From IMG/VR virus record IMGVR_UViG_3300031673_000017, positions 12,670 to 76,669 of that record: a stretch of 64,000 nt of DNA. The stretch is one strand, 5' to 3'. This document shows positions 23,734-46,913 of this stretch, piece after piece; positions within the stretch are counted from its first letter, which is position 1, and each line of letters starts with the position of its first letter. This DNA comes from a virus. Lineage: Duplodnaviria > Caudoviricetes. Position numbers and translations under genes: made by a program. The notes below the pieces were generated by a model. That model was given only the letters and a program-made list of their open reading frames with translations. It was not told where the DNA came from and ran no database searches.

Positions 23734-25281
23734 CTATATCATAATACTTTCACTTGATAGCGTTTCCGCTTCTGTTAAATTTTCGATGTTATCATCTTTT
23801 CTATGTTTATTTTCAATGTCTTGCGCTGATTCTCCTTTTCTTGGAAAATCGCGAAGTTTATGTTTTAATGCTGCTTGTGCTGCTTTCTTAAATTTTCTGT
23901 CGCCGTGGAAATAAATATATCTATGCTTTCTTGACGATTGTTCGAAATAAATTCTATCTCCATATTTAGCTTGTAACTTCTCCCTCATATTCTCCTGCCC
24001 TTTAAACTCTGCTAAAATAGTGAGTTCATGGGCATTCTCTCTTCCGCGTAATTTAAGAGCTTTATGCGTTGTGCTTAATCCTGTATAAACAAAATTCGTG
24101 GCTTGATAGACGCAGCCAACATGGTCTTGAGCCATGTCTGCAAAACTAACTATTATTTTATTCTTTGGAAGCATCTTTATACTTCGCCCAACTAATAAGC
24201 TCGCTTCGTTCTTTCTGTTATACTTTAAGCATAACCTTGTTAGCTCTATGATGTTTGGCTCAAAAAGTACTCCTGCTATATTGACCCTCAATGGCATACT
24301 ACTCGTTTCGCCGTATGTTACAACACCGCATAATTCATCTTCGTAAAATAAACCGAATGGATAGCTCATCATCGGCATGCGTTTTGCATAATGAATATGC
24401 AATAAATACGGTTCACATTCTTGTCTCGTTATTCTTTTAACGCAATACTTCTCAGATTGCATTGTACTTTCAAAATCGGGATGCCGGAATCGAACCGGCC
24501 CTTCCCCACTGGTGGTGGGGCGTTTCGCCCTTGAAACCTCTCCCGTATGTGGCAGAATTATATCGTCAAAATCTGCACTTGATATTGTCTCTGCTGACTC
24601 ACAATTGGAAACATTATCTAATTTGCTAAATTTATTCTCTAACTCTTTAATGCTATTTATTCCTTTAGGATAGTCTCGAATCTTATATGTCAATGCTAAC
24701 ATAATTCGTTTCTTAAATTTCCTATCACCATGAAGATAAATGTATCTATGCTTCCTTGAATTATCTTCTCTAAATAAATCGTCTCCATACTTCTCACGAA
24801 GTTTATCAGTTCTGTTTGGAACGCCTCTAAACTCATCCAATAATGTTATGTTATGTAAATGTTCTTTACCTCTTACTTTCCACACACTACCTTTTGTGCT
24901 TAAACCAGTGTATAAAAAGTTAGTTGCTTGATAGACATATCCAACATGATCCTGCTCTGAATCAGCGTAGCTAACAATTAATTTATTTTTAGGTAAAAGT
25001 TTTATACTACGTCCGACGAGAATACTCGCTTCGTTTTTTCTATTATATTTCAAACAAAGACGATTTAATTCAATTACATATCGCTCATTTTCGTCCCCTG
25101 CTATAAATCTTCTGAGTGTTGAACTTGGTGGCGTTCCGTAAGTTACTACACCACACAACTCTTTGTCTTCACTTGTAAATAAGCCGAATGCCCATGTAAT
25201 GCTCGGCCATCGATGTGCATAATGGATTCCTAATATGTACGTCTCGCATTCTTTTCTGGTTATTTGTTTAACAGTGTACAT
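23734..25281 (-). CDS. Tandem two-domain Mom-like (GNAT-fold) DNA adenine modification protein
   Basis: Two paralogous ~210-aa units, each HYA.R...FGLF...LCGVVTYG...IEL.RLCLKYNRKNEAS.LVGRSIK.LPKNK.IVS.AD..QDHVG.VYQATNF.YTG...KHRYIY.HG; second unit has its own ATG at 24462. Confidence 0.85.
   Translation of the reverse strand: MYTVKQITRKECETYILGIHYAHRWPSITWAFGLFTSEDKELCGVVTYGTPPSSTLRRFIAGDENERYVIELNRLCLKYNRKNEASILVGRSIKLLPKNKLIVSYADSEQDHVGYVYQATNFLYTGLSTKGSVWKVRGKEHLHNITLLDEFRGVPNRTDKLREKYGDDLFREDNSRKHRYIYLHGDRKFKKRIMLALTYKIRDYPKGINSIKELENKFSKLDNVSNCESAETISSADFDDIILPHTGEVSRAKRPTTSGEGPVRFRHPDFESTMQSEKYCVKRITRQECEPYLLHIHYAKRMPMMSYPFGLFYEDELCGVVTYGETSSMPLRVNIAGVLFEPNIIELTRLCLKYNRKNEASLLVGRSIKMLPKNKIIVSFADMAQDHVGCVYQATNFVYTGLSTTHKALKLRGRENAHELTILAEFKGQENMREKLQAKYGDRIYFEQSSRKHRYIYFHGDRKFKKAAQAALKHKLRDFPRKGESAQDIENKHRKDDNIENLTEAETLSSESIMI
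24475..24546 (-). ncRNA. tRNA-Gly-like cloverleaf (anticodon ACC), probably non-decoding, embedded in frame in the Mom-like ORF
   Basis: ACGGGAG AG GTTT CAAGGGCG AAAC G CCCCA CCACCAG TGGGG AAGG GCCGG TTCGATT CCGGC ATCCCGA T: perfect D, anticodon and T stems; acceptor 5/7 paired; C33; no CCA. Confidence 0.7.
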
Positions 25282-25349: not shown

Positions 25350-26051
25350 TCAGATTAAAATATCGTTACTATTTAGTTGTTCTGCTACATCACAAACATT
25401 AAAATTATCGATGTTACTTTGAAGCAAGAATCGTTTCTTCATCTTCTTATCGAGAATGTACAGAAATCTATACTGAAATTCTTTAGTAATATGTTTGATT
25501 CCTTTATAACGTTCTTTAATTATGCTCCACGTTCGACCACCCGTTTGATGGTAAATAGTAATTGGATGAATTCGCTCCCCATCGGGCATTATGTAAAAGT
25601 CAACGTTTACTTTTCCAATTTTAATTGCATTAGAGGCTTTGTAAATTGTACCGTAGTTCCCAACTGATCCGTCTGCATAAGTTATAACAAATTTAATTCT
25701 TTTATGAACTTGTCTAAGATATGACCTCAATAAACTTATTACTTGTGTCTCTGAGAATTTTGGTAGCTCGTCGCTTAACCACATTCTATCGAATTCACAA
25801 AAGTTTCCTTTCATTATTAGACTCGAAATGGTATGCTTTTCTTTTGGTTTAATCCCATAGCCTAATTGTAAGAATCCTTTTCCATTATTTACTAAGAAAC
25901 TTAAGAATCTATTCTTAGTTGCTTTATGTGAATAATGATACTTAATAACAAGTTCATCGACTATTGTGCTTGGTGTTTCGATTATCCAATAACTGCCATT
26001 GCTAATTCCAATTGGCTTTTTGGTAATTGTTGAATAGATTAAAGATTTCAT
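25350..26051 (-). CDS. mom: Mu Mom-like DNA modification protein
   Basis: HYSHK...LQLGYGIKP...EFDRMWLSDELPKFSETQVIS...TYADGSVGNYGTIYKASN...FQYRF parallels phage Mu Mom. Confidence 0.8.
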   Translation of the reverse strand: MKSLIYSTITKKPIGISNGSYWIIETPSTIVDELVIKYHYSHKATKNRFLSFLVNNGKGFLQLGYGIKPKEKHTISSLIMKGNFCEFDRMWLSDELPKFSETQVISLLRSYLRQVHKRIKFVITYADGSVGNYGTIYKASNAIKIGKVNVDFYIMPDGERIHPITIYHQTGGRTWSIIKERYKGIKHITKEFQYRFLYILDKKMKKRFLLQSNIDNFNVCDVAEQLNSNDILI

Positions 26052-40756: not shown

Positions 40757-41087
40757 ATATTATTTTTAATTCGCCTATTGGAAAAGAGTATGAATAACCA
40801 ATTTCAATAATAGGCATAGGTTTATAACGCTTAATATTACGTTTAGCATATTGTCTGCCGCCTACACGTTCACTACATAAAGCAAAATGAGTGATCTTTC
40901 CCCAGTCTGACTGAACTGTATTAAAAACGACAAGATTACTATTAGATATACTATAATTTTTGTTAAAAGTCCATTGCTTTACAATAGCACGTGCGTAATC
41001 AGATTTTTTAACTTCACCATCTTTATTAAATAATGCGACATAACAATTAGCCATCAGTTCTCCTCTTAACTTTAATTTTCTGTACAA
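40737..41087 (-). CDS. Small virion-type beta protein, paralog of 49503..49859
   Basis: VALF...EV...YAR...SN...F.....DWGKITHFAL; likely start MANCY at ~41054. Confidence 0.5.
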   Translation of the reverse strand: MYRKLKLRGELMANCYVALFNKDGEVKKSDYARAIVKQWTFNKNYSISNSNLVVFNTVQSDWGKITHFALCSERVGGRQYAKRNIKRYKPMPIIEIGYSYSFPIGELKIIFEGDMV

Positions 41088-41979
41088 TAATCTTACTCAT
41101 AAGACACGTTGAATTATGCTGGCAATATCTTTGTCCAAATTCGTAATCTTTTGCGTATTTTAAGTTTACAACATCATAAGGACATTGAATTATTTTTCCG
41201 CCGATGAAATAATTGGCAAAGTTGCATTTTCTATTACTACAATTACCAGAAACAATATCATTGATGACACTTTCGAAGACACCACGTTTACTTATATGAA
41301 TTTCCATATTACCAGTATATCTCCATAGAAAAGCATGCACAAGCTCCTTGTAATCTATTACGTTCATTGACCCAGAGGTTATTAAATCCATTTCATTCTT
41401 AAAAAAGTCAGCATTATTATCCAGATACCTATAACTGGAAATGAAGAACGTTTTGCAGCCTATACCCTCAGCTTCGTCTGCAACTCTTTTTAGTTCACTA
41501 AGAGTTGTGTTCCCGCCGATCATAAAATTTATATCAACTTCCCCGTTTAGTCTTAGATAGGCACTGACAGGACGGCGTAGTGATTCGAACGGTTTGTCTC
41601 CATCGGAAAGACAATCTACAGAGACACGAATTTTGGCACCGTGAAAATCTTTTGGAACATATTGACCAAGATACAATCCATTTGTGTATATTGTAGTCTT
41701 CAAACCTTTGTCAAAATTATGGTTGCACATTTGATTGATTTGTCTATGCAGCAACGGCTCGCCACCGAGTATATTTATTTGTCTTGCACCTTTACTTCTT
41801 GTTTCAGCAATTGCCAATTTATATTCTGACATTGACATATAGGCATCATCAGTTTCATTCATTGCTCTTATTGCAAAACACCCTTTACATTGCAAGTTGC
41901 ATTTATTAGTAATGTAAATTTGCAGCGTCGGTCGCCGATTGACATTATAAGGTTCATATTTATCCCATGGAAATCTCAT
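41047..41979 (-). CDS. Radical SAM protein
   Basis: CNLQCKGC (CxxxCxxC), GGEPLLH, IYTNG; Cys-rich C-terminus. Confidence 0.9.
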   Translation of the reverse strand: MRFPWDKYEPYNVNRRPTLQIYITNKCNLQCKGCFAIRAMNETDDAYMSMSEYKLAIAETRSKGARQINILGGEPLLHRQINQMCNHNFDKGLKTTIYTNGLYLGQYVPKDFHGAKIRVSVDCLSDGDKPFESLRRPVSAYLRLNGEVDINFMIGGNTTLSELKRVADEAEGIGCKTFFISSYRYLDNNADFFKNEMDLITSGSMNVIDYKELVHAFLWRYTGNMEIHISKRGVFESVINDIVSGNCSNRKCNFANYFIGGKIIQCPYDVVNLKYAKDYEFGQRYCQHNSTCLMSKIIVQKIKVKRRTDG

Positions 41980-46744: not shown

Positions 46745-46814
46745 TAGTTATTCCTTATAAGCATCATTTATCAAATCACTGTGTTCTTTAATTAAATCTT
46801 TATAACCAATTTAA

Positions 46815-46898
46815 TGGCCGAGGTGAGAGTCGAACTCACACACCTATAAAGATATTGGATCTTAAATCCAATGCGTCTGCCAATTCCGCCACTCGGCC
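46815..46898 (-). tRNA. tRNA-Leu (anticodon UAA), CCA not encoded
   Basis: GGCCGAG/CTCGGCC acceptor, TGGCGGAATTGGCAGACGC D-arm, TTGGA-TTTAAGA-TCCAA, long variable arm, GTGAG-TTCGACT-CTCAC. Confidence 0.95.
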
Positions 46899-46913
46899 AT
46901 GATTTATTTTAAT

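Follow-up and report, generated by a model that had tools for sequence, protein, structure and literature searches.

Why would a soil phage carry a tRNA-Gly-like RNA inside the reading frame of a DNA-modifying enzyme? The question is raised by the IMG/VR record IMGVR_UViG_3300031673_000017, a complete 76.7-kb virus genome, of which we analyzed a stretch of 64,000 nucleotides (the window). All genes in the window lie on the minus strand. One of them is an open reading frame (ORF) of 515 amino acids (23734..25281) that encodes two Mom domains and reads through a 72-nucleotide tRNA-Gly-type RNA gene (24475..24546, minus strand) situated between them. Mom of phage Mu moves glycine from Gly-tRNAGly to N6 of adenine in double-stranded DNA, as the initial annotation of this locus had stated; the activity, described in a preprint in 2023 and a paper in 2026, made it the first enzyme known to use an aminoacyl-tRNA on DNA, and the tRNA was assumed to be scavenged from the host (PMC13219725). 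Gly-tRNAGly-dependent adenine modification has been shown only for Mu Mom and two metagenomic homologs (PMC13219725). The phage element is a genuine and conserved tRNA-Gly gene, though an atypical one, and by analogy with known donor tRNAs we lean, with modest confidence, towards reading it as a co-transcribed, processed and glycylated donor for Mom.

ARAGORN calls a tRNA-Gly(acc) at 24475..24546 on the minus strand already at default settings, where relaxed thresholds had been proposed. The call and the sequence agree in every detail with the cloverleaf of the initial annotation, including its coordinates, stems, T loop, kept and mismatched positions and lack of CCA. No mismatch interrupts the D, anticodon or T stem, and the T loop reads TTCGATT in the sequence and in the Rfam alignment. 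The RNA retains C2:G71, G3:C70, C35, C36 and U73. A1xA72 and G7xA66 mismatches leave an acceptor stem of five pairs only, and the anticodon loop is CCACCAG (C33, A34, C35, C36). Within the conserved core, G18G19 and the T loop are present, whereas A8, C14 and G21 take the place of U8, A14 and A21, which are nearly universal in tRNAs. The discriminator at 24475 is followed not by an encoded CCA but by a 12-nucleotide trailer (24463..24474, minus strand; sequence and alignment A4) and then by the ATG of the second Mom domain (24462-24460). The trailer begins, next to the discriminator, with a conserved UUU/UUA triplet (T75-T77, without variation in A4). Of all predicted folds the cloverleaf has the minimum free energy, and it accounts for 78% of the ensemble; the patch has 60% G+C against roughly 33% in its flanks. 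Translated in phase 0, it supplies residues 246-269 of the fusion protein, ...HTGEVSRAKRPTTSGEGPVRFRHPDF....

The missing CCA is no objection to the donor reading, because the phage's other tRNA also lacks an encoded CCA. This tRNA-Leu(UAA) (46814..46899, minus strand; ARAGORN, 58.4 bits on the Rfam model RF00005) is intergenic and canonical, with a fully paired acceptor stem. An assembly chimera at the junction, the artifact against which the initial annotation had cautioned, is ruled out: three soil runs, possibly of the source campaign, yielded contigs (6.9, 20.5 and 22.8 kb) that cross the stretch without a difference, and the same architecture occurs in two relatives from other metagenomes.

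These relatives, L003 (82% protein identity) and L004 (77%), share the Mom-tRNA-Mom ORF, and in both of them the corresponding place is occupied by a tRNA-Gly(UCC). Both copies have U33 in a canonical CUUCCAG anticodon loop, and they score 34.7 and 31.7 bits on RF00005, above its threshold of 29. A8, C14 and G21 are found in all three phages, as are the 1:72 and 7:66 mismatches; with 1:72 (AxA or GxA) and 7:66 (GxA) unpaired, the clade falls short of a seven-pair acceptor stem. Covariation, which had been proposed as a check, is evident among the three RNAs: both sides have changed in four pairs (6:67, 29:41, 31:39 and 51:63), and no change breaks a stem. The compensatory counts were matched in 2 of 500 shuffles and were zero in slid controls. 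Because the L003 and L004 copies pass the Rfam threshold and show compensatory changes, the element is more than a chance resemblance.

The substitutions also indicate at which level the sequence is conserved. Nucleotide identity is 83-88% in the tRNA block compared to 66-80% in the flanking tails, third codon positions take 33-44% of the substitutions there compared to 59-72% in the Mom domains, and more codon changes are non-synonymous than synonymous. This RNA-type pattern argues that the peptide is a passenger and that the element is selected as RNA, not as peptide. Changes on the window's own branch are confined to loops or are compensatory.

The proteins P0003 and P0004 also contain the tRNA-coded peptide, from which alone the state of their tRNA is read. 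P0004 (310 amino acids, from a Logan assembly) has MomA deleted down to its first 8 residues and keeps the tail, the tRNA-coded peptide and MomB; judging from its peptide, pair 51:63 of the T stem may be a G:A mismatch. Among viral contigs, exact and degenerate tRNA patterns matched L003 and L004 only, a metagenome scan added just a second copy of L003 and a single-Mom locus that lacks the tRNA, and blastn of the 515-amino-acid ORF against cultured phages gave no match. The D-arm pattern had zero matches in 185,579 species genomes and therefore identified no host or donor tRNA.

A homologous tRNA occurs in a second Mom lineage, where it is read in a different frame. At L090:3609-3682 and L173:2609-2682, a tRNA-Gly with an encoded CCA lies within the 3' end of a single Mom ORF. 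The L090 RNA, with anticodon ACC, has the odd A8 of the window, its 5-bp D stem and the same T loop, together with a perfect acceptor stem, G1:C72, U73 and CCA. Its relatives L173-175 (84% Mom identity) keep the tRNA inside the Mom ORF, as does L172, which groups with L090. The peptide read from it is RKKYQEEIR... rather than the GEVSRAKR... of the window clade, and because the codon phases differ, the RNA is what both lineages conserve. Between L090 and L173 both sides have changed in four pairs, and across the window clade and L090/L173 at least two Watson-Crick pair types occur at 9 of 23 stem positions; the two groups were compared segment-wise, the MAFFT alignment A8 having mis-registered the D and anticodon arms. 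The wobble base is A in L090 and L172 and U in L173-175, paralleling A in the window and U in L003/L004. In both lineages the wobble base and variable-loop position 45 vary jointly, A34 occurring with AAGG and U34 with AGGG, a co-change that may be chance or may reflect two old alleles swapped by recombination. In L090 and L173, the 5' half of the tRNA encodes a basic C-terminal stretch of Mom, MRKKYQEEIR.LP, and the Mom stop overlaps the ATG of the next gene.

How did the tRNA come to be translated in the window phage? The fusion ORF matches the Mom family PF25680 in two stretches (255.6 bits against a cut-off of 27.1; E 4e-76). The first domain, MomA (residues 2-206, 24664..25278, minus strand), is identified by Pfam and by a match to the Mu Mom structure PDB 8bv8 (E 2.9e-9), and it is followed by a tail (residues 207-245, 24547..24663, minus strand; alignment A2 and translation). 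The second, MomB (23842..24462, minus strand; Pfam and alignment), has its own ATG at 24462 in the window phage. The tail behind the first domain is homologous to the C-terminal tail behind the second (alignment A2), which places the start of the tRNA approximately at the former stop codon of the first unit. The likely history, as read from these sequences, is that momA, tRNA-Gly and momB stood in tandem and that the stop was then lost.

The fusion is retained in P0002, P0003 and the L004 ORF. In the window, L003 and L004 alike, the tRNA is entered in codon phase 0; its flanks leave neither of the remaining frames open, and every linker indel has a length divisible by three. In L004 (L004:3508-3545), ATA replaces the clade's ATG, so that its MomB can be made only within the fusion. 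The ATA and the linker indels in threes argue that the fusion protein is kept by selection, and they weaken the suggestion that the RNA serves mainly as a cleavage site separating the two Mom units. Since Mu Mom is an obligate dimer (PMC13219725), a tandem fusion would make sense as a single-chain dimer, which is most likely what this protein is. Arg74 and Ser86 of domain 1 occupy invariant columns among 21 Mom sequences and would equal the catalytic Arg111 and Ser124 of Mu Mom if the numbering of the delta-10 crystal chain is shifted by 9. An AlphaFold2 model from a five-row alignment is poor (mean predicted local distance difference test score, pLDDT, 42.7), with the tRNA-coded segment as coil of lowest pLDDT. 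The two Mom units close with acidic tails that resemble each other, ..LENKFS.LDN..NC.LAETLSS.DF.. (window 24547-24663 and 23737-23841), a feature not obvious in the single-Mom relatives examined. Among other family members, P0005 is a Mom-Mom fusion without the tRNA linker, and P0008-P0017, P0028, P0040 and P0120 (about 420-440 amino acids) combine a cysteine-rich, HNH-like N-terminal half with a C-terminal Mom domain.

Is the pairing of Mom with tRNA-Gly peculiar to this clade? Three sets of loci were sampled: 80 viral loci closest to the fused domains (47-65% identity; each has a single Mom except L081, which has two), 80 viral loci nearest the third Mom type of the window phage, and 80 bacterial or archaeal loci. 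That third, divergent gene (233 amino acids, 25350..26051, minus strand; PF25680, 133 bits, E 1.4e-38) is about 20% identical to the fused domains, and it and the double-Mom ORF both sit downstream of the terminase gene. The initial annotation had expected enrichment of Gly-type elements at mom homologs if the pairing is meaningful; enrichment is nil around the closest relatives of the fused domains (0 of 80 loci) and clear in the subfamily of the third Mom and in bacterial genomes. A Gly-type tRNA lies within about 120 nucleotides of Mom at 11 of the 80 loci of the second sample, and no Mom subfamily is linked to tRNA-Gly more often than that of the third Mom. In the third sample, a Gly-type tRNA-like RNA directly adjoins Mom at 14 or more of the 80 loci, in Dehalococcoidia/Chloroflexota, Acidobacteriota, Ignavibacteria, Bacteroidota and Clostridium.

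The Gly tRNAs of the second sample span approximately seven Mom lineages that share less than 60% identity, with tRNAs at most 76% alike between lineages, and at least 11 switches of the tRNA state fall on the Mom tree. Among confidently called tRNAs more than 300 nucleotides from Mom, none of 17 is Gly; near and far positions differ at Fisher p = 1.3e-6 by locus and 2.5e-4 by lineage. A Gly-type cloverleaf with U73 and C35C36 in or beside Mom is thus conserved among relatives in the window clade, in L090/L173 and in further lineages. That a Gly-specific mimic next to Mom is unlikely by chance, as the initial annotation had held, stands: such tRNAs abut Mom in several unrelated phage lineages and in bacteria.

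The Mom-linked RNAs keep the parts used for charging and vary in those used for decoding. U73, C35, C36 and C2:G71 are present in all of them and G3:C70 in all but L157, and many (L090, L162, L115-L119) combine a complete acceptor stem, G1:C72 included, with U73 and an encoded CCA, many as free-standing genes. Deformed decoding parts are common: anticodon ACC, G33 or C33, loops of 6 or 8 nucleotides, a UGC T loop or a short D arm. ACC appears in six lineages, beyond the window and L090/L172 also in L105, L200, L235 and L246. To our knowledge, this anticodon is almost absent from bacterial tRNA-Gly. L105 combines ACC with G33 and lies on the strand opposite to Mom; L121 and L145 have a canonical UCC tRNA near Mom, and L157 has CCC near Mom and a GCC start. 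UCC is accompanied by a short D arm in L115/L118 and by a UGC T loop in L116/L119. In L153 (1-3697), an RNA whose anticodon loop has 8 nucleotides, whose T loop contains UGC and whose D loop lacks GG lies 49 nucleotides after three consecutive Mom genes. In L162:2903-2978 and L178:1333-1408, an RNA with the 6-nucleotide loop UAUCCG, U73 and CCA stands 14-22 nucleotides upstream of Mom; it is kept at 68% Mom identity, with a compensatory D-stem change. The atypical RNAs still fold as cloverleaves, with compensatory changes in the L115/L118/L116 group. Several Mom-adjacent Gly tRNAs score 22-35 bits on RF00005, compared to 58-76 bits for non-Gly neighbors in the same arrays.

Some further loci stand beside these. 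L153, like the window, has several Mom genes plus an odd tRNA-Gly. In L200, L204, L207, L210, L219, L235 and L246 (about 1393-1496), from Chloroflexota/Dehalococcoidia and Acidobacteriota, the Mom match is immediately preceded, or overlapped at its start, by a Gly-type RNA that ends in GCTCCA and has an ACC or UCC anticodon or a loop of aberrant size, in agreement with a Dehalococcoides locus described in 2011. The tRNA is absent from the relatives of L105, so that the link there is perhaps accidental. No tRNA is annotated beside Mom in Methylophilales phage Melnitz-3, the nearest cultured relative of the tRNA-array Mom lineage (60% identity). In that lineage a canonical tRNA-Ala(UGC) lies directly upstream of the Mom start or overlaps it (L114:2889-2964, L136:2880-2955 and L145:2391-2466), which raises the question of whether some Mom relatives use Ala-tRNA or whether Mom merely sits inside a tRNA array.

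What would the RNA be for? Retention of the charging parts, free or damaged decoding parts and linkage to an enzyme that uses Gly-tRNAGly are together best fitted by a dedicated glycyl-donor tRNA. Bacterial glycyl-tRNA synthetase (GlyRS) recognizes G1:C72, C2:G71, C35, C36, U73 and a purine4:pyrimidine69 pair (PMC10464925), and U73, C35, C36, C2:G71 and R4:Y69 are all present in the window, L003 and L004. Mu Mom takes all three E. coli isoacceptors, refuses Gly-tRNAAla and probably reads mainly the acceptor end of the tRNA (PMC13219725). After two tandem mom genes had fused to a single-chain dimer and the ORF had swallowed the tRNA, the RNA would be co-transcribed with the mom genes late in infection. 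In a share of the transcripts, host ribonuclease (RNase) P would cut the 5' end and RNase Z or another nuclease the 3' end, and the host CCA-adding enzyme would complete the RNA. Host GlyRS would then charge it through U73, C2:G71, G3:C70, R4:Y69, C35 and C36, and the three Mom domains of the phage would take the glycine from this Gly-tRNA to hypermodify phage DNA at N6 of adenine. The unpaired positions 1:72 and 7:66, together with A8/C14 and the window's C33/A34, would keep the RNA off elongation factor Tu (EF-Tu) and the ribosome, and Mom would thus draw on a glycyl pool that translation does not drain. A 1:72 mismatch keeps the bacterial initiator tRNA off EF-Tu; the conserved mismatches may play the same part here. 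We infer all four of processing, charging, use by these Moms and exclusion from translation. A scan for promoters and terminators around the element found nothing above chance, and no internal promoter can be claimed.

A precedent for such a donor is found in the staphylococcal cell wall. In S. aureus, EF-Tu competes with a Gly-tRNA-dependent transferase, and non-proteogenic tRNA-Gly escapes this competition and is preferred by FmhB (PMC7826273). The non-proteogenic species NP1-3 of S. aureus and S. epidermidis, which feed FmhB, FemA and FemB, are charged by GlyRS, poor substrates for EF-Tu and the ribosome, and serve a GNAT-type aminoacyl-transferase rather than translation (PMC7826273). Two of the Mom-linked RNAs, L116 and L153, share with them the UGC T-loop triplet and the loss of the D-loop GG. 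The staphylococcal tRNAs differ in being chromosomal, restricted to staphylococci and not located beside the fem genes, and their glycine goes to a peptidoglycan precursor, not to DNA; the comparison with the phage RNA is an analogy only. A wider proposition is that Mom enzymes have repeatedly gained a private, non-translating tRNA-Gly donor, that the clade's 72 nucleotides are dual-coded as tRNA and dimer linker, that each transcript would yield either enzyme or co-substrate, and that the wobble base is free to drift between UCC and ACC. This we regard as a possibility that falls a little short of probable.

Several observations weigh against a donor role. The GlyRS-identity pair G1:C72 is missing from the clade (A1xA72 in the window and L003, G1xA72 in L004), and an A1-U72 variant is less well charged by L. 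plantarum GlyRS (PMC10464925). On RF00005 the window copy reaches 24.9 bits, below the gathering score of 29, and it gives no hit in wider and whole-genome searches with that model. The RNA must be cut from an mRNA that must also be translated through, and because L004 MomB has no start of its own, processing there destroys the message. A private donor is not required, because Mu Mom works with any host tRNA-Gly. The UCC anticodon of the relatives also fits codon supplementation, because GGA is the commonest Gly codon of the phage (35.5%). The sample nearest the fused domains contains one tRNA, for Arg, in 421 kb and no tRNA-Gly even at relaxed ARAGORN thresholds. Finally, the sequencing runs that carry the stretch are soil-metagenome DNA contigs, with no RNA run listed.

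Could the cloverleaf instead act in place, as a tRNA mimic within the mom mRNA? Such an element would bind Mom, GlyRS or factors that sense charged or uncharged tRNA to tune translation of the second half, or its cleavage by RNase P/Z would set how much full-length fusion is made relative to separate products and tie mom expression to the capacity for tRNA processing. The initial annotation had ranked a cis mimic first. Control of this kind would suit a gene that in Mu is elaborately regulated and lethal if mis-expressed (cited in PMC13219725), and the clade's copies, without CCA and with imperfect acceptor stems in a translated region 12 nucleotides before an internal ATG, look the part; P0004, too, has lost MomA and yet keeps linker, tRNA and MomB. 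Elsewhere, however, the elements stand alone with perfect acceptor stems and encoded CCA, and they lie upstream, downstream and once on the opposite strand of Mom, so that no single cis mechanism fits. Moreover, Mom probably reads the aminoacylated 3' end, and an internal element has none; L004, without an internal start, shows that separation of the units is not the general purpose of a cleavage switch. Because many Mom-linked relatives are free-standing with G1:C72, U73 and CCA, features that a chargeable tRNA needs and a cis operator does not, we reverse the initial order and favor a private glycyl carrier over a cis mimic, which we consider unlikely.

The next explanation, an ordinary codon-supplement tRNA, we also think improbable. 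Here tRNA-Gly(UCC) and tRNA-Leu(UAA) would read the GGA and TTA codons favored by an A+T-rich phage, the former having been trapped when the first stop was lost, and the window copy would be decaying. Phage tRNAs for A-ending codons are common; TTA makes up 48% of Leu codons in this phage beside the high share of GGA among Gly codons, and the L003 and L004 copies, above the Rfam threshold, have canonical CUUCCAG loops. Like ordinary phage tRNAs, the element lies on the coding strand and encodes no CCA, and the relatives' anticodon fits the commonest Gly codon. Unlike the intergenic, canonical tRNA-Leu, it lies inside an ORF and is mismatched at 1:72 and 7:66, with A8/C14 and, in the window, C33/A34. 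The conserved mismatches and A8/C14 would be odd for an elongator tRNA, the site is inside the gene of an enzyme that depends on Gly-tRNA, and the pairing recurs in unrelated lineages. Nor does the window branch, with its loop or compensatory changes only, look like decay, and the U34/A34 switch is also seen in the intact, CCA-bearing L090/L173 lineage.

Far less probable is a relic, that is, a dead tRNA gene or recombination scar that now serves only as a flexible protein linker. The sub-threshold Rfam score of the window copy and the coil predicted for the encoded segment, in a poor model, would agree with it, but three phages show compensatory and no stem-breaking changes, and the nucleotides are better conserved than their flanks and the peptide poorly. 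Although tRNA genes are the target of many integrative elements, which then bring a copy of the tRNA with them, we reject as highly improbable that the element is an attachment site (attP) of the phage derived from a tRNA-Gly gene of its host, since the complete 76.7-kb genome has no integrase (searches for tyrosine, PF00589, and serine, PF00239, recombinases found none), its gene content is of lytic type, the D-arm pattern is absent from the species genomes searched, and co-variation links the 5' half of the element to the 3' half, something that an attP would not call for.

The locus may be set beside Mu Mom itself (Silva et al. 2026, PMC13219725; PDB 8bv8). Both halves of the fusion and the third gene belong, like Mu Mom, to PF25680. 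Mu has one mom gene, relies on host tRNA-Gly and encodes no tRNA, whereas the window phage has three Mom domains, two of them fused with a tRNA-Gly inside. Another parallel is the "pseudo-tRNA" reported by McMurdie et al. in 2011, a complete tRNA-Gly-like cloverleaf of about 76 bp inside a mom homolog of Dehalococcoides ssrA islands, for which no function was proposed (PMC3146451). A tRNA-Gly-like locus within a mom homolog is therefore already known, and there, as in the window, the cloverleaf is conserved inside a Mom-family coding sequence. The Dehalococcoides element occupies the first 150 bp of a single mom gene on an integrative island, and Mom was then seen as a methylase-like protector; ours lies in a Mom-Mom linker of a lytic-type phage and has acceptor mismatches, no CCA and an ACC/C33 loop. 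New are the in-frame site in the linker, the RNA-level selection there, the homologous tRNA in the other frame of a second lineage and the recurrent UCC/ACC switch. The papers on Mom chemistry that were consulted make no mention of mom-linked tRNA genes.

If the donor reading is correct, many Mom systems bring their own co-substrate, and this would be the second natural tRNA withdrawn from translation for a transferase, after the staphylococcal cell-wall tRNAs, and the first for DNA modification. Orphan "pseudo-tRNAs" in genome annotations would be explained, and the pairing would provide a genomic marker for glycyl-tRNA-dependent DNA modification systems, as well as a compact enzyme-plus-donor cassette for probing how Mom recognizes tRNA. 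The in-frame arrangement is in itself a clear example of RNA-level selection on a sequence that is also translated.

Beyond the mom locus, the phage encodes PolA, an ATP-dependent ligase, a 5'-3' exonuclease and a primase-helicase, which mark the gene content as lytic, together with a large terminase. Its replication region also contains a gene for a radical S-adenosylmethionine (SAM)/4Fe-4S protein at window positions 41047-41979.

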